A stretch of DNA of 64,000 nucleotides, from NCBI GenBank assembly GCA_000092065.1, contig CP000582.1. One strand, written 5' to 3'. Positions 9,320-28,150 of this stretch are shown piece by piece (the stretch's first letter is position 1; the number at the start of each line of letters is the position of its first letter). The notes under the pieces are model-generated. The model made no database searches, was not told the DNA's origin, and saw nothing but the letters and a program-made list of their open reading frames with translations. Source of the stretch: Ostreococcus lucimarinus. Taxonomy: Eukaryota. A program made the position numbers and the translations under genes.

Positions 9320-11707
9320 CTAAAGCGAAGCGTGAAAAGTACGAGCGATGACTTCCTCTTGATGTGCTCGCGAGAGTTTGATGAAATTCACCGCATACCC
9401 GCTCACGCGAATGGTGAGGGTGGGATAGTTGTCTGGATGCGCCATGGCGTCTAACAGTACCGATCTATCGATACAGTTAACGTTCAAATGTTGAGCGCCG
9501 TGTGAGAAGTAGCCATCCAGCAACGCAGTCAAGTTCGAGACTCGAGTCCCGTCCGTCTTGCCGAGCGATGGCGCGGTGATGGAGAACGTGTTGCTGATGC
9601 CATCCATGCAACTCGCGTACGGGATCTTTGCCACAGAATTGAGTGAATTCAAAGCACCCGTCTTGTCGCGATTGTGCATCGGATTCGCGCCCGGCGCGAA
9701 CGGTTCACCGAGTTTTCGCAAATCCGGCGTCGCGCCAGTATGTTTCCCGTACATGACGTTGGACGTAATCGTCAGAATCGAAAGCGTGTGCTCGGATCCT
9801 CTATACGCTGGCGTCTTTCGTAAACTCGAGATGAACGTTTCCACAACACTGGCGGCGATGGTGTCAACCTCATCGTCGTCGTTGCCAAACGCGGGCCAAT
9901 CGCCATCGACCTCGAACCGAGTGGATAATCCCGACTTTTCGTCGCGAATCATCTTGACTTTTGCGTGCTTGATGGCGCTGAGAGAGTCGGCCACAACGCT
10001 CAACCCAGCGATGCCGAACGCCATCATCCGCTTGCAATCGGTGTCCATGAGCGCGAAAAACAAGGCCTCGTAGTTGAATCGATCATGCGAGTAGTGGATG
10101 CAGTTCATCGTCTCCACGTAAAGCTTGGCGAGCCAGTCCATGTACGCCGTAAAACGCTTCATCACGTCATCGTATTGTAAAACACCTTCAGGAACTTCGT
10201 CGTCGAAAAGCGCGGGCGCGACGCGGGCGCCGGTGATTTCGTCGCGACCGCCGTTCAGCGCGTAGAGAAGAAGCTTGGGTAGATTGCATCGCGCGCCGAA
10301 ATATTGCATGGTATGCCCCAACTGCATTCCCGACACGCAACAACTGATACCGACGTCGCTCGATTGAAACTTTTCCCGCAGTAAGTCGTCGGAGATGAAC
10401 TGAATTGAGCTCGACTCGATGCTGATCGCCGCCGCGAATTCTTTAAACGGCTTCGGCAACGATTCGCTCCACAAAACCGTCATGTTTGGTTCCGGCGCCG
10501 CGCCCATGTTGCGTAGCGTTTGTAGAAACCTCCAAGAAGTCTTCGTCACCAACGTGTCGGTGCCGTTCATCTGCATGCCACCCACGCAACACGTGGCCCA
10601 GATGGGATCGCCGGCGAAAATGTCGTCGTACGCCTCCGGTCGAAGATGCCGAACGAGTCTCAGCTTGAGCACAAAATTGTCTATGAGTTCCTGCGCGCCC
10701 GATTCGTCGATGAAACCAGCCTTCATGTCGCGCTCGATGTACACATCAAAAAAAGCGTCGACTCGACCGAGAGAAATCGCCGCGCCGTCGTGTTCCTTCA
10801 CGCACGCGAGGTAGGCAAAGTACGTCCACTGAACCGCTTCTTTGCAATCGCGCGCGGCGGCGCCGATGTCGAAACCGTACATTTTTGCCATCGCCTTGAG
10901 CCGCTCCAACGCGCGAATTTGCTCCGACACCTCAAATCGTGCGCGCAAGTCCTCCTCGTCGCTCGTCGCGATGGCATCTTTGTCGATTTGCTTCTCCGCG
11001 ATCAACCGATCGACGCCGAACAGCGCCACGCGGCGATAATCCCCGATCAAGCGCCCTCGTCCGTACGCGTCCGGGAGCCCGAGCAAGAGATGCGCCTTCC
11101 TCGCCGATCGCATTTCATCCGTGTACAAGTCGAAAACCGCGTCGTTGTGCGTCGTGACCCAATCGTCAAAAAACTTCTTCGCGTCCTCCTTCATCGTCGC
11201 GCCGCGCTCGCCCAGCGCCTTCTCCACCACGCGCAACCCTCCCAACGGCTTCATCGTCCGCGTGAGCGCGCGCGTCGTCTGCAGCCCGACCACGACGTCG
11301 TCCACCTCCTTCGACAGCACGTACCCCGCGCCGTGCGACGTCGCTCGCGACGGCGTCTCCGCATCCACCGCCAGCGCCCCTCCCGCGCGTCGCTCCAGCT
11401 CGAGCAACCGCCGCGCCTCCGCCAGCAGTTCCAGCGTCTTTCCCGTCGGTTTCGCGAGCGTCGTCGCGCAGTCGTCCGCGCGCGGCGTTCCGCGCGCGCG
11501 CACGAACGCGTCCACCGCGTCCACCGCGAGCGTCATGTCGTCGTCGTCGTCGCGCTGTGCCGCGCGTCGTCTCGCGTCGTCTCGTCTTCTCTCGTCTCGG
11601 CTCGGCTCGGCTCGGCCGAGAACGTCGATTCGCATCCCGACCGAACCGTCGCGAGATTCGCGTCGACGGTCGACCGCGCGCCACCCCCCCCGGCGTTCGC
11701 GCGACAT
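9320..11707 (-). CDS. PFL: Pyruvate formate-lyase (glycyl radical enzyme) with N-terminal extension
   Basis: Collinear with PflB throughout ([35 protein letters not shown] active site region). C-terminal glycyl radical motif [11 protein letters not shown]. Start uncertain: ATG 11707 chosen so as not to overlap the divergent gene; an upstream in-frame ATG at 11941 would add a transit-peptide-like S/A/R-rich 78 aa. Confidence 0.85.
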
Positions 11708-11759
11708 TCCGAGGCGACGCGCGCGAATCTCGACGGCCGCCGACGCGCGCGCGCGGGCG

Positions 11760-14700
11760 ATGCGCGCGCGATGGGACGCGCGACGCGCGGGACGCGCGCG
11801 CGCGGTCGTCGCGGTCGTCGTCGCGGCGCTCGCGCTCGCGAAACGGGCCGCGGGGGCGACGCACGCGGTGACGATCGAGACGGGATCGGCGCTGAGCGGA
11901 CGACGCGACGCGGCGACGGGGACGCAGGAGGCGCTGATCATGGTGACGCACCCGGCGGACGTGACGGTGGACGAGGCGGACAAGGCGAAGCTGACGAAGG
12001 TGTTTAAGACGCAGACGGAGGCGTACTTCGCGTGGGCGTCGTACGGGGCGCTGACGCTGAACGTGTCGGTGTTCTTTCATCAGCTCGGTTCGAACGAGAA
12101 GGACGCGAACGGGGCGTGTAATCCTCACCCGGATGCGTCGGCGGCCGACGGCGTGCATTATAACCCGTGGGATGCGAGCGCTGATTTTCAAGAAGTGTAC
12201 GATTCGTACGCGGGCGACCCCGGGACGAACCGAAACTCGGGAAGGAAACACATGCGGACGTTCATGCATTTGACGAACACGTGCACGGGGACGTGCGAGT
12301 CGAACACGAACGGCATCATCTGCACGCAGAAGCACTCGTCGGTCACGGCGTGCGCCGACGCGGATTCCACGACGGAGTTGTGCGATACGACGGAGATTCA
12401 CGAGCTTTTACACGCAATCGGGCTCAAATATCACTCGGGCGGGTACAAGTGCAAGCAGTCGGATTACGACGACTCGACTACGACGTGGCGGCTCTGTGAG
12501 TACAAAGATTACGGTGGCGTCTTCGATGTCTTGGGCTCGGGCTCGGACACGTACGGGAAAAAGATGGCGTGGGGCGTTTCTTCGTATTTAAGATGGGACA
12601 TGCACTGGCTCTCTAACGATAACGTGAAAGTCATCACGAAGACCAACGGACGCGTTGACGACGACGCGGCTGATGTGAGTGAAACGTGCATCCTGAGTTC
12701 GTTGAGTGTTGATACGACGGAGTCCTCGACAACGCGCGCGTGCGTCGTTCGTTTCTCTGATGATACCATGTCGGATTTGGGTACGATCTGGCTCGAGCTT
12801 CGAAGTGGCAACAAGTTCGACAATCTTATCCTTAACGGCGAGCACAGCGGATTCAACTCTCTCGGTGTGCTCGGTTATCACGAAGGGAACAAGTTGATTG
12901 ATTTCTACCCACACGCCGCTGATTCAACAGACGCTGCGAAATACGACGACTGGGAACAGACGGCGCTGAGATCGACAGAAAACGGCGGCGTTTGGATAGA
13001 CCCCGTGTCAGGACTAAAGTTAACGGTAGCCGCGTTCGATTCAACATCTCAAACGATCACGGTTACCGTCACGTTTGGCCAACCGGCGGAGTGCAGCAAA
13101 AGAGGCGCGAAGGCGTATCCGAGTCAGTTTCTTGGCTACGGGGTGTGGCACGTCCGCATGTCAAACGACAGCGAGAAAGATAAGTATTATCCAAGCGTCA
13201 ATTTGGCCGATTATCCCGGCGACGCCTCGTCGATCACGAATGACAACTTCAGAACCAATTATTTCACGACTTCTTACTTTGATCAGTACATCCCTTATGC
13301 TGATAGCGGAATTCAGTATACGGTGCAACAAAAAGAATGCTATAAAGTCGTGCTGCAGTATAGAATGAGCGTGCAAAATTTGGATTACGGCGCGTGCGCG
13401 AAATCTCACTTGACAGTGCGCGGGTTGAATCTGCCCGCCGGTTGGCGAGTTGACGAGGGCGGATGCGTGAACGCAGCAGGCGCACAAGCAGTCGTCGACG
13501 ATATATGTTTCGTCGTCGCCGTGGACCCGAACACTGCCGATGGCGCTTACGAAATCCGAATCCAAGCCGCTCAAATCAACTACAGCGATAAAGCAGTGAT
13601 GGCGGCTACGGAGACTGTCCCACTCTGGGTTTGCGTGGGCGGATACAACCATTATACTCAAGCGTGGGGTGACAACGCTTGGACGTGTGACTACGGGCCC
13701 GTGGGATCTAAAACCAGGGTGACAGGTAGTTCTGGCACAATAATCAACCGGGCGTCGAGTACGTACGAGGCGAGCTCGACGTATTATTCGACTTCGGACG
13801 TCTCAGCGAGGAAGAGCAGCACGGCGATTCATTACACCCGGAATCCTGAGGTCACGAACGACGGCGCTGACCGTCTGCAATCAATGTCCAGTATCGCGAT
13901 CGCAGAAGTGAGCGATGATCGTTGTTATCAAGTTACGAGCACGCGATACTGCTCGGCCAACCATTACGTCTGGAGTCAGTACGTCTGTTCGGCGTGTCCG
14001 ACAGACTCAACCCGCCCTGAAGGCGATGATAGCTGGCTGGCCGACGGCGAGACACAGTGCTCGTGTCCAGACGGAACCGCTTGGTCAAACGGCATGTGTG
14101 TCCCTGCCGCCTCGTGCTCCGCGGACGAACGCGTGAACAGTGCCGGTGCGTGTGTGGCGTGTCCATCTGGCTCGACGAACGAGGCGGGTGACGTCGCACC
14201 TGGGACCGAGACCAAGTGCGCTTGCGCCGCGAACTATCGCGTGAACAGTGCTGGCGCGTGCGAGGCGTGTCCATCTGGCACGACGAACGCGGCGGGTGAC
14301 GTCGCACCTGGGACCGAGACGCAGTGCGACTCTGCCGCCTCGTGCTCCGCGGACGAACGCGTGAACAGTGCTGGTGCGTGCGAGGCGTGTCCATCTGGCT
14401 CGACGAACGCGGCGGGTGACGTCCCATCCGCGGGCGAGACGCAGTGCGCTTGCGCCGCGAACTATCGCGTGAACAGTGCCGGTGCGTGCGAGGCGTGTCC
14501 ATCTGGCTCGACGAACGCGGCGGGTGACGTCCCATCCGCGGGCGAGACGCAGTGCGCTTGCGCCGCGAACTATCGCGTGAACAGTACCGGTGCGTGCGAG
14601 GCGTGTCCATCTGGCTCGACGAACGCGGCGGGTGACGTCCCATCCGCGGGCGAGACGCAGTGCGCTTGCGCCGCGAACTATCGCGTGAACAGTGCCGGTG

Positions 14701-15653
14701 CGTGTGTGGCGTGTCCATCTGGCTCGACGAACGCGGCGGGTGACGTCGCACTTGGGACCGAGACCCAGTGCGTCTGCAATGATGGCTACTCACTTTTGAA
14801 TGGTGAGTGCGTTGAGTCAACCGAGGTTGAAGTCAAGGTTGAGTTCGCGGGAATCACACAAGTCATCGACGATACCCTCGTGCAGACGCTCCAAAACGCG
14901 CTGACGACGTCGCTTTTGGCAGACACCACTGGCGTTCAAGTGGACCCGGCTAATATCACCATTAAGTACACGATGCTAGGAAAGCAAACGTTCTCGTCCC
15001 CTGTGGATGAAAGCTCGTTCATCACCGCCGCCGCGTCGTCGTTGGGTGTCGCCACGTCTGACATTGAGAACTTTGCGCAAAGCGCGGCGCGCAGGCGTCT
15101 ACTCAGCAACATCGTGACGTATCAAGTCGTGACGACGAATAGAGCGACGTTGAACACAGCTTTGTCTGCGGCAAGCTCTCCAATCACCGTCGGCGGCGTG
15201 ACTGGAACGGGTGCCGCACCGACGACGACGATAGCCGCCGAAATCAAGACAGCGATCCCGACTTCGCAGGCGTCCACCGTCACTGCGACTCTCAATGATC
15301 CATCCTTCACTACGGATATCGCAACATCAGCCTCGAACGCGGGTGTCAGTGGTATCTCGATCTCTTCGCCGCCGTGCACTGGACTCACGCAGCCTGCGAA
15401 CGGCGTTTCTGGTACGTGCGGCTCCGAGCTCGCCAGCGGCTCGTCGTGTCAACCGACGTGCAACTCTGGGTACACCGTGAGTGGCCAGACGACATGCATC
15501 GCCGGTGCGCTCACGGCCGCGACGTGCTCGAGTAACAGCGGCTCATTATTTGGCGGCTTCTTGGGCTTAGTATCCGCCGCAGGTGTTCCGCTCTTCCACG
15601 TTGACACAATTTTGCTCGCAACGGTCGCGCTAGGCGCGCTACTCGCGCCGTAA
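11760..15653 (+). CDS. Secreted/anchored zinc metalloprotease-like protein (HExxH) with six Cys-rich 36-aa tandem repeats, a sushi-like Cys module and a C-terminal hydrophobic anchor
   Basis: ATG 11760 followed by signal peptide [27 protein letters not shown]. Zinc-binding motif [12 protein letters not shown]. Repeats [36 protein letters not shown] x6 (ephrin-receptor-like / TNFR-like Cys spacing). [17 protein letters not shown]...[13 protein letters not shown] sushi-like. C-terminal [17 protein letters not shown]...ALLAP hydrophobic tail (GPI signal or TM). Confidence 0.65.
14107..14775 (+). repeat. Coding tandem repeat, 108 bp period (one 120 bp variant), 6 copies
   Basis: gcgtgaacagtg recurs at 14131, 14239, 14359, 14467, 14575, 14683. 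Copies are >90 percent identical at the nucleotide level, which suggests recent expansion or concerted evolution. Confidence 0.9.
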
Positions 15654-15841: not shown

Positions 15842-16816
15842 ATGCGCGACGACGACGAAAAAGCCCAACCAAAAAGCCCAACATTTTGCTTTGCCACCAA
15901 GCGCCGCGGAGCTTTTCCGCCACGTCCGCGACCGATCGTTTTCCTGCCGCCCGAGCGCAACTACGCGGCGCGGGGCTTGGGGCTGCTCGGCGGCGACCCG
16001 GCGAGCGCGGCGGACATCGAGGACTGCGGTGCGGTCACCGGGCGCGTGCACAGCATCGATACTTTCACCGCGGTCGATGGACACGGAATACGATGCATCG
16101 TGTTCCTTCAAGGGTGTGAAAAACGATGCGCGTTTTGCTGCAACGTCGATTCGACGCACGCCGCGCTCGCGAAGACGCCGAATCCCGGGCGCACGATGTC
16201 GGTGAACGATATAGTCGAAATTTTGAAGCGAAATCGCAAGTATTACGCGAGCTCGGAGGGAGGTGGGCTAACGCTTTCCGGGGGCGAATGCCTGTTGCAA
16301 CCGGCGTTCGTGGAGGCGGTGGCGATCAAGACGCACGAGATCGGCTTGACGGTGGCGATCGACACCGCCGCCAGTGGGGACGCGGAGACGTGGAATCGCG
16401 TGTTGCCGCACGTTGACGTGGTGCTGTTGTGCGTGAAGAGCTCGAGTTTGGAAAAATACAAAGCCATCACCGGTACGACGGAACGCGAGTACGAGACAAT
16501 GCGCGCGTTTCTGAAAGAATTGAATCGCCGCCGTGTGAAAACTTGGTTGCGATTCGTGCTCATGAGCGATCCGGATTCTCGATTCGTCGACTTTCGAACG
16601 AACGACGAAAACGAGCTCCGCGGTCTGGCGGAGCTCGCGAAAACACACGAGTGTGTTGAGGGAATTGAGCTTTTGCCCTATCACAGATTCGGCGAGTTTA
16701 AGTTCAGCGAGCTCGGTCTCGAGTACAAGCTCGAGGGCATGCGGACGCCCGACGCTGAAGAAATTCACGCGGCGCAGACGTTTTTGCAATCTCAAGGCGT
16801 GACGGTGATTTGCTGA
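15842..16816 (+). CDS. PFLA: Pyruvate formate-lyase activating enzyme (radical SAM) with N-terminal presequence
   Basis: TGRVHSIDTFTAVDGHGIRCIVFLQGCEKRCAFCCN matches the PflA N-terminus including CX3CX2C. ORF-track start 15752 is TTG; first ATG at 15842. Confidence 0.8.
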   Translation: MRDDDEKAQPKSPTFCFATKRRGAFPPRPRPIVFLPPERNYAARGLGLLGGDPASAADIEDCGAVTGRVHSIDTFTAVDGHGIRCIVFLQGCEKRCAFCCNVDSTHAALAKTPNPGRTMSVNDIVEILKRNRKYYASSEGGGLTLSGGECLLQPAFVEAVAIKTHEIGLTVAIDTAASGDAETWNRVLPHVDVVLLCVKSSSLEKYKAITGTTEREYETMRAFLKELNRRRVKTWLRFVLMSDPDSRFVDFRTNDENELRGLAELAKTHECVEGIELLPYHRFGEFKFSELGLEYKLEGMRTPDAEEIHAAQTFLQSQGVTVIC

Positions 16817-26948: not shown

Positions 26949-27984
26949 TCACAGACGCGCGCGCAGTCGAGATTCCGGATTCGGCGCGCGCGCGAACGAA
27001 CGCGACGGAGGCGTGCGGCGTGAGCGTGAGCGTGAGCGGGACCGTGAGCGTGAGCGGGACGTGATGAATGAAGGGCGCGTGTGGTGCGCCTGCAGAAATT
27101 CGTGACGACGCGTGCGCGACCGTCACGGGGTATGGAATTTAGTTTTCAACCAGCAATATTCCAAGCTCAGTTAAGACTTCACAGCTTTGGATATAACCCC
27201 ATGCGCAAAGATGCGACGCGGGACGCGCGGGACGCGCGGGTGATGGGACGCGTGGACGCGATGGCGATTTCGAGGTTATGGGTCAGGGCGTGCGATGGGC
27301 GTCGCCGCGCGCGGCGCGCGGTCGCGCGCGACGAAAGACGCGTCGGTCGGCGCGAGACGACGACGACGTCGTGCGTCGCGCGTCGTCGTCGTCGTCGTCT
27401 CGCGTCGTCGTCGTCGTCGTCGCGCGCGTCGTCGTCGCGGGAAAACGCGGCGACCGACCGAACGACACACTCGCGCGCGGCGCCGACGCGCGCGACGAAG
27501 GTGGTGATTTTTTACCACGGGTAGAATAAATTGGTTGAATCTCCTTGAATGGAATATAAAAAGGGTTGTATGTGGTAAAAGGCAACAGACAAGCACCTCG
27601 TTCTTATACTCCGGAGCGTTCGAGGGACGACGCCGCGCGCGGCGATCGGGTGCGCGCGCGACGGGGCCGGGGCGATTTCGAGGTTACGGGCGCGAAACAC
27701 GGCGCGCGCGACGGCGCGCCTCTCGTGCGCCGACCGATGCGTCGCGCGCGCGCGAACGGTCGCGCGCGGTGCGTCGACGCGCGACGCGCGCGCGACGCGA
27801 CGCGCGCGCGCGATACCGTCGAGCGCGCGTCGATGGATCGCGCGCGCCGTCGACGTCGACGCGCGCGCGCGTCGACGACGCGCGCGCGGCGCGTCGGCGT
27901 CGGCGTCGGCGCGACCCGTAACCCGCAAACGCGCGCGGCGACGTCGCGAATGCGTCTGGGGGGGGCGCGCGCGACTTCGCGCGC

Positions 27985-28150
27985 ATACTTACCTGCGCCG
28001 AACTCTATCTGATCATGAAGGGGTAGAGTTGCGCGAATCCGTGGCGCCTTGCACTTCGCGCACACGTATTCGCGTCGTTCGTCGCCTAACGGGGCGAACG
28101 GGGCGACAATTTATTCCAGGGTGAGACCGGCGTTCGCGCTACTCGCCATC
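27985..28150 (+). ncRNA. U1: U1 spliceosomal snRNA gene, about 166 nt
   Basis: 5' end ATACTTACCTG (11/11 match to the U1 5'-splice-site-recognition sequence). Stem-loop I CCGAACTCTATC-TGATCATGAAGG-GGTAGAGTTG with the U1-70K-type loop GAUCAUGAAGG. Stem-loop II loop CTTGCAC (U1A site AUUGCAC). Sm-like AATTTATTCC. 3'-terminal hairpin GGTGAG-ACCGGCGTTCGCGCTA-CTCGCC containing the conserved GCGUUCGCGC loop. Boundaries are plus or minus a few nt. Confidence 0.65.

Follow-up and report, generated by a model that had tools for sequence, protein, structure and literature searches.

The window analysed here is a 64,000-nucleotide stretch of DNA from Ostreococcus lucimarinus, and our subject is one plus-strand gene within it that encodes a protein of 1297 residues. 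We consider it likely that this protein enters the secretory pathway and is held at the membrane, probably by a glycosylphosphatidylinositol (GPI) anchor, as a zinc endopeptidase of the metzincin type carried on a stalk of variable length. Ostreococcus is a model picoeukaryote without cell wall or scales, and hardly anything has been described of its surface proteome. The cell surface is the meeting place with viruses, grazers and nutrients, and the locus offers a concrete candidate for an enzyme acting there. Surface metzincins with a gametolysin-related catalytic domain are a kind of protein already known; in the literature we found nothing specific on a surface metalloprotease of Ostreococcus or on gametolysin in Ostreococcus.

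The putative catalytic head

A first-pass annotation of this DNA had pointed to an HExxH motif in the N-terminal part of the protein. The motif is present as HELLH at residues 214-218 and belongs to a longer pattern. By chance, about 0.013 HExxH motifs would be expected in this protein, and about 2e-5 motifs of the extended form HExxHxxGxxxH. We found HExxHxx[G/D/C]xxxH in the window protein and in 25 out of 25 representative clusters of the family that cover the region, and the motif is kept by every homolog in the family alignment that covers it, with the exception of P0053. In the latter sequence, from a Logan assembly, H-to-Y, T-to-M, S-to-F/L and A-to-V changes recur systematically (for example EIYEFLYVIGFKYY). 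Because this pattern fits C-to-T conversion, P0053 probably stems from bisulfite-type reads and does not represent a real variant. Across the family the signature reads hHExxHxxGxxYH...C...WRxC..EYGxxxDxLGS...R..LxWL.

Apart from the motif, the N-terminal domain had been described as lacking any recognisable family signature. Profile comparisons suggest instead that it comprises a metzincin of M11 type, distantly related to gametolysin, with a beta-rich domain and an immunoglobulin (Ig)-like NEW3 domain behind it. A profile built from 30 family sequences (A2) retrieved proteins with the Pfam domains Peptidase_M11 and NPCBM_assoc, and the M11-type proteins P0130 and P0128 score 71.4 and 31.1 bits, respectively, against the M11 model PF05548 (cut-off 21). 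In hhalign, the A2 profile matched P0128 at 99.1% (E 1e-18, 294 columns) and P0130 at 98.3% (E 2e-14, 299 columns). The alignments span from the zinc motif (for P0130 from upstream of it) into the NEW3 domain, and, once a gap of one residue is allowed, they place the zinc motif against HEMGHNLGL-YH and HEIGHNLGM-WH of M11-type proteins. Because these matches are to confirmed PF05548 proteins and the same arrangement of beta-domain and NEW3 domain follows, we read the head as a divergent M11-type metzincin. With gametolysin and the other PF05548 proteins, including bacterial ones that combine M11 and NEW3, it shares the elements HExxHxxG..H and EYG..D.(M/L), and P0128 has a downstream Cys pair in common with the family. 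Gametolysin is also secreted or extracellular, as predicted for the window protein, and provides a green-algal precedent. Unlike M11 enzymes, however, all members of the family have an extra residue between the Gly and the third His, and the window protein has a Leu at the Met-turn position. It further differs from gametolysin in its predicted tethering to the membrane on a Cys-rich stalk and in belonging to a host without a cell wall to lyse. M11 and M12 are reported to share the motif HEXXHXXXXXH within subclan MA(M), and no structure was available for M11 as of 2020 (PMC7518263).

The metalloprotease-like fold that had been presumed from the motif is borne out by structure prediction. An AlphaFold2 (AF2) model of residues 34-725, based on a 30-sequence alignment, reached a predicted local distance difference test score (pLDDT) of 76 and a predicted template modelling score of 0.79. 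The modelled head has the elements of the metzincin clan MA(M), namely a five-stranded sheet, an active-site helix that ends at the Gly and a C-terminal helix. The top 50 Foldseek matches were nearly all metzincin catalytic domains, among them those of fragilysin, adamalysin and ADAMTS proteins; probabilities were mostly 0.94-1.0 and E-values weak (1.6e-3 or worse). In a fold search with the same model, 302 residues aligned to InhA2 at 13% sequence identity, a stretch that may reach into the beta-rich middle domain. Ranks 2-60, interspersed with Ig-type folds, included ADAM17, atrolysin, ulilysin, archaemetzincin and OgpA, with a score of 7.4 at rank 2. The predicted catalytic domain and, as it seems, the domain that follows it are structurally similar to those of InhA2 from Bacillus anthracis (family M6, PDB 4yu5). 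M6 peptidases carry the motif HExxHxxGxxD, with Asp as the third zinc ligand, and an inserted MAM domain. Neither feature is seen in the window protein, which has a His at the position of the third ligand and no Peptidase_M6 or TIGR M6 match in Pfam or NCBIfam. InhA2 is bacterial and secreted as a virulence factor, whereas the window protein is eukaryotic and predicted to be anchored. Taken together, profile and model describe a divergent gametolysin-like head with a beta-rich and a NEW3 Ig domain whose predicted fold resembles InhA.

Proposed anchoring and activity at the cell surface

Entry into the endoplasmic reticulum would be mediated by the N-terminus. Kyte-Doolittle hydropathy exceeds 1.6 at two places only, residues 13-34 and residues 1263-1297, and the signal-peptide-like N-terminus is kept in orthologs. 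Downstream of it, a short pro-segment may end at a dibasic SGRR site, whose two Arg (R48 and R49) do not vary among the five sequences of alignment A1, including two homologs of 61% identity. M11 and M12 enzymes are made as proenzymes and activated by limited proteolysis (PMC7518263); the pro-segment proposed here could be lost at the conserved dibasic site. A GC-rich micro-repeat at 11746-11805, with Tandem Repeats Finder (TRF) periods of 11 and 16, runs across the start codon and into the Arg-rich n-region. Some alleles have a 4-residue insertion at this micro-repeat, and others are 3 residues shorter somewhere upstream of the stalk.

The second hydrophobic stretch is the C-terminal tail noted in the first-pass annotation. 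Its layout fits a GPI signal on manual inspection, with an internal S-A-A-G site, an 8-residue spacer containing polar residues and a hydrophobic end of 15 residues. A GPI pathway is present in Ostreococcus, in which PIG-A, PIG-M, PIG-V and the last (alpha-1,2) core mannosyltransferase have been found (PMC3797821). We weighed a GPI anchor against a single-pass transmembrane (TM) helix without a cytosolic tail, or a protein that is shed. The TM helix draws on the nearly continuous hydrophobicity over 35 residues, which is enough for a helix, on the helix that AF2 places at the end of the tail, and on the distant family members P0026, P0054 and P0056, which have classical TM segments with cytosolic tails. 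A length of 35 residues also speaks against the GPI reading, since GPI signals are typically shorter; an omega site within the tail (at about S1272) would remove this objection. However, the tail of the window protein is followed neither by cytosolic residues nor by stop-transfer positive charges, and the tails of the ortholog P0025 and of other proteins with the membrane-proximal cassette described below measure 11-16 residues, too short for a TM helix. On balance we regard a TM helix or shedding as rather unlikely, though the most serious of the alternatives discussed here, and favor the GPI anchor. Surface anchoring as such is consistent with the sequence.

The tail is preceded by a 51-residue module with six Cys for which a sushi or complement control protein (CCP) nature had been proposed. 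This proposal is weakly supported. A profile of eight copies of the module, compared with the PDB, returned 27 matches, all 27 to CCP proteins, of which Crry was the best (E 4.8e-5), while Pfam Sushi gave a non-significant E of 3.4. The pattern C..P.NG....C....G..C...C..GY...G....C..G.L....C aligns to Crry, factor H, MCP and DAF; unlike canonical CCP modules (PF00084), the module has six instead of four Cys, carries a Leu in place of the invariant Trp and stays below the Pfam threshold. AF2 confidence is low in this region (pLDDT 31-44). We regard the module as tentatively CCP-like. It recurs with 58-71% identity in the marine metagenome proteins P0137, P0139, P0145, P0147 and P0149, in one or two copies behind FG-GAP, DUF285, RCC1-like or LamG heads, and in P0137, P0139 and P0145 it lies near a short C-terminal hydrophobic tail. 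This recurrence suggests that module and tail form a shared membrane-proximal cassette for surface anchoring, which could help to define the surface proteome of these algae. Between the repeat stalk and the CCP-like module we also found a tandem ferredoxin-like alpha/beta domain that the earlier description of the architecture had overlooked.

From these features we propose how the protein might work. After its signal peptide has directed it into the endoplasmic reticulum, the C-terminal hydrophobic signal would hold it on the outer face of the plasma membrane, most likely after exchange for a GPI anchor. The CXXC units, the tandem ferredoxin-like domains and the CCP-like module would together keep the head off the membrane. 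We infer zinc ligation by H214, H218 and H225, with E215 as general base, and likewise the activity, the GPI anchoring and the class of substrate. Judging from gametolysin and VMPs, ADAMs, MT-MMPs and GP63, the protein would most likely act at the surface of the wall-less cell and cleave (glyco)proteins that are extracellular or displayed there. The predicted arrangement is shared with the membrane-bound metzincins GP63 (M8), MT-MMPs and ADAMs, whose head is mounted on the cell surface by a GPI or TM anchor, often with Cys-rich or EGF-like spacers; GP63 is described as a GPI-anchored surface metalloprotease (PMC2119965). ADAM and adamalysin catalytic domains are recurrent secondary fold matches of the head. 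No sequence family shared with these three groups was found, and the accessory domains differ.

The head might also be more specialized than this. Gametolysin cleaves heavily glycosylated wall proteins, and NEW3/NPCBM-associated domains are usual companions of glycan-active enzymes, which would fit a mucinase-like O-glycopeptidase directed at O-glycosylated, Ser/Thr-rich substrates in the manner of OgpA, a protein assigned to M11 by NCBI annotation. Since the family assignment of OgpA is disputed by its own authors (PMC7518263), this comparison loses weight, and we hold such a specificity to be improbable for the window protein.

Several observations weigh against an active metzincin altogether. 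In place of the canonical HExxHxxGxxH/D, the third His lies one residue further from the Gly, and the Met of the Met-turn in P0128 (EYGDGFDAM) aligns to Leu258. The head drew no match from Pfam, searched with the full length and with four segments, even at E 10, nor from NCBIfam, nor from PDB sequence searches with the single sequence and the 30-sequence profile; for Peptidase M11 itself (PF05548) there was no match at E up to 10 with the full length or the segments. The missing matches to curated peptidase models, the altered Met-turn and the one-residue insertion in the zinc motif would all suit a head that is no longer catalytic and works as a binding module on a variable stalk, and a repeat stalk, a CCP-like module and an Ig domain are typical of adhesins. 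Met-to-Leu replacements in metzincins are, however, tolerated experimentally, and a Met is retained at the turn in two distant members (P0089 and P0090 only). Moreover, the 25 representative clusters and the window protein, which span very distant eukaryotes, retain all three His together with the catalytic Glu. Because of this complete conservation of the catalytic residues a dead enzyme is disfavored; we give it a small chance, slightly below that of the O-glycopeptidase, and retain the reading as an active zinc endopeptidase.

The repeat stalk and its copy number

The six Cys-rich repeats of the first-pass annotation are real, with units of 36-40 residues, but the statement that their DNA copies are more than 90% identical was too strong. 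Over a 90-nucleotide core, identity among units ranges from 84 to 99%; units 3-5 reach 96-99%, and otherwise only few pairs exceed 90%. TRF reports a period of 108, 6.0 copies and a score of 921 at 14115-14772. The units are spaced by 36/40/36/36/36 residues, contain four Cys each and fall into two subtypes (CSADER... and CACAANYR...), and on its flanks the array has a seventh unit of divergent sequence as well as two small EGF-like caps. AF2 modelled residues 720-1297 with an overall pLDDT of 64.5 and the Cys-rich units as small beta-hairpin modules (pLDDT 60-80). A Pfam match to TNFR or Ephrin_rec_like families (e.g. PF07699), which had been anticipated, did not appear; the only hit on the repeats was TNFR_ELAPOR1_6th at E 0.008, with 16.5 bits against a cut-off of 33.2. 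A profile of the repeats compared with the PDB gave the Cys-rich domain of mGluR5 as the best match, at a non-significant E of 0.23.

Copy number varies between natural sequences. Alleles that are 97-99% identical outside the array contain 1, 2, 3, 4, 5 or 6 units and differ in steps of 36 or 40 residues. An independent 330-kb contig from JGI encodes a six-unit protein like that of the window, with 7 amino acid differences (P0028), and a 428-kb contig (ERZ10646630; L004 4855-5935) carries 10.0 units with a match of 97%. In this ten-unit allele, frame shifts occur between units and the gene is called as three fragments; the frame shifts resemble the indel errors that arise in long-read assembly. 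Gaps of 100 N lie inside the array on three scaffolds (L005 5644-5743; L006 and L007 5767-5866), which counts against the variation being read at face value. Gene callers fragment the gene at these gapped scaffolds. Because short-read assemblies break or collapse inside the array, the low copy counts, which come from such assemblies, are provisional. That the array or its variation is altogether an assembly artefact, as the 100-N gaps exactly inside it on three metagenome scaffolds and the hybrid first or last units of low-copy alleles might suggest, is highly improbable, since the six units of the window can be told apart individually, the same six recur on the 330-kb contig, ten are found on the 428-kb contig and deeper lineages carry different but intact arrays. 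The array itself is therefore real and polymorphic, and uncertainty is confined to the low counts.

Expansion and contraction of the 108-bp units would proceed by unequal recombination or replication slippage, so that natural Ostreococcus alleles would differ by up to about nine units in stalk length. To our knowledge, a stalk polymorphic in copy number is no described feature of the GP63, MT-MMP or ADAM families. Natural length variation at the locus is easy to score.

The comparison with sister lineages points in the same direction as the alleles. At the same locus, a 70%-identical ortholog of 1927 residues was found (P0020; L002 6001-11784). In its stalk there are nine CXXC units, which belong to several types, along with four CCP-like modules and an unassigned insert of about 180 residues; the stalk of P0021 combines two CXXC units with three CCP-like modules. 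Set against the stalk of the window protein, that of P0020 therefore indicates extensive module shuffling between sister lineages. The rapidly evolving stalk postulated in the first-pass annotation is thus supported by the sequences at both distances.

Family extent and genomic setting

We scanned 1.84 billion cluster representatives exhaustively with HMMER, using a profile of five sequences, and obtained a family of 43 proteins (clusters). The identifiable sources are a green alga, the bolidophyte Triparma eleuthera and a craspedid choanoflagellate; most of the remainder are metagenome assemblies, and the identified members are all from marine protists. Judged by its sequences, the family is missing from the Pfam and NCBIfam copies searched and is set apart by the shifted third ligand and by Leu at the Met-turn position. 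For protease classification, it would add a clade with these two features that links M11 to the InhA fold. One could go further and see a new metzincin family that occurs in marine protists only, with members in Mamiellales, bolidophytes, choanoflagellates and uncultured lineages, and that is defined by HExxHxxGxxxH and a frequently Met-less turn; in Ostreococcus, stalk polymorphism would then be maintained through selection by prasinoviruses or grazers that touch the cell surface. We consider this combined proposal unlikely; if true, the locus would be a gene of surface variation and host-enemy interaction in a highly abundant picoeukaryote of the ocean.

The first ATG of the coding sequence is also the start in metagenomic gene calls from many marine contigs, where near-identical full-length calls are found, and in signal-peptide-bearing homologs. 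The candidate enzyme is abundant in metagenomes. The 90% cluster of the protein has 112 members, the assembly collection indexes the flanking gene in 652 blocks, and MMETSP transcripts exist for orthologs that are 80% and 54% identical. The 1297-residue product, looked up as an exact sequence, matched no record. Recent horizontal transfer from bacteria was considered and dropped, as only remote M11 proteins and no close bacterial homolog were seen; the gene of one of these remote proteins, P0128, lies in a two-component-system neighborhood. The features of the gene and its surroundings are listed in Table 1.

Table 1. Coordinates of the gene, its predicted domains and other features in the window
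Feature	Residues	Position	Strand	Basis or remark
Complete coding sequence, no intron	1-1297	11760..15653	+	1297 aa plus stop
Signal-peptide-like N-terminus	1-33	11760..11858	+	hydropathy; Arg-rich n-region, h-region, AGA|T
Possible short pro-segment	ends at dibasic SGRR (46-49)	11859..11906	+	inferred
Predicted metzincin-type catalytic domain	~54-300	11919..12659	+	
Predicted zinc-binding motif (H214, E215, H218, G221, H225)	214-225	12399..12434	+	
Family motif (E/D)YGxxxDxLG		12507..12536	+	L258 aligns with Met of EYGDGFDAM (Met-turn position)
Beta-rich middle domain	~301-529	12660..13346	+	aligns with equivalent region of M11-type bacterial proteins
NEW3/NPCBM_assoc-like Ig beta-sandwich	~530-655	13347..13724	+	
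Ser/Thr-rich low-confidence linker	668-721	13761..13922	+	pLDDT below 50
Divergent CXXC Cys-rich unit and small EGF-like cap	722-782	13923..14105	+	in all alleles
Six tandem 36-40-aa Cys-rich (CXXC) units	783-1004	14106..14771	+	TRF and by hand
Tandem ferredoxin-like alpha/beta domain, Thr/Ala/Ser-rich	1016-1202	14805..15365	+	between stalk and membrane-proximal module
CCP/sushi-like 51-aa module, 6 Cys	1206-1256	15375..15527	+	profile versus PDB
C-terminal hydrophobic tail	1263-1297	15546..15650	+	hydropathy; no cytosolic residues
Pyruvate formate-lyase (PFL)		9320-11638	-	flanks the gene
PFL-activating enzyme (radical-SAM)		15842-16816	+	downstream neighbor
U4 small nuclear RNA		27076-27212	-	Rfam
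U5 small nuclear RNA		27501-27618	-	Rfam
U1 small nuclear RNA		27985-28147	+	Rfam

The start codons of the gene and of the divergently transcribed PFL gene are 121 bp apart. The PFL-activating enzyme is identical to XP_001416074.1 / A4RTI0 of O. lucimarinus CCE9901, which assigns the window to this species or to a very close relative. Ten metagenome contigs (L001-L010) keep the order Ddi1-like, PFL (-), target gene (+), PFL-activating enzyme (+) and MiaB-like (-). A functional link to PFL or its activase was considered and dropped. Because a 54%-identical homolog sits at another locus (L011), the adjacency to PFL is probably incidental.

Antisense open reading frames cross the repeats, such as one of 295 residues at 13933-14820 (-) that spans the array and is itself repetitive in sequence. 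We rejected them as genes, as they are most likely artefacts of GC-rich repeats. Elsewhere in the window, three small nuclear RNA genes lie within 1.1 kb (27076-28147), all above the Rfam gathering thresholds. These genes are spliceosomal (U4, U5 and U1), and the window is therefore eukaryotic.

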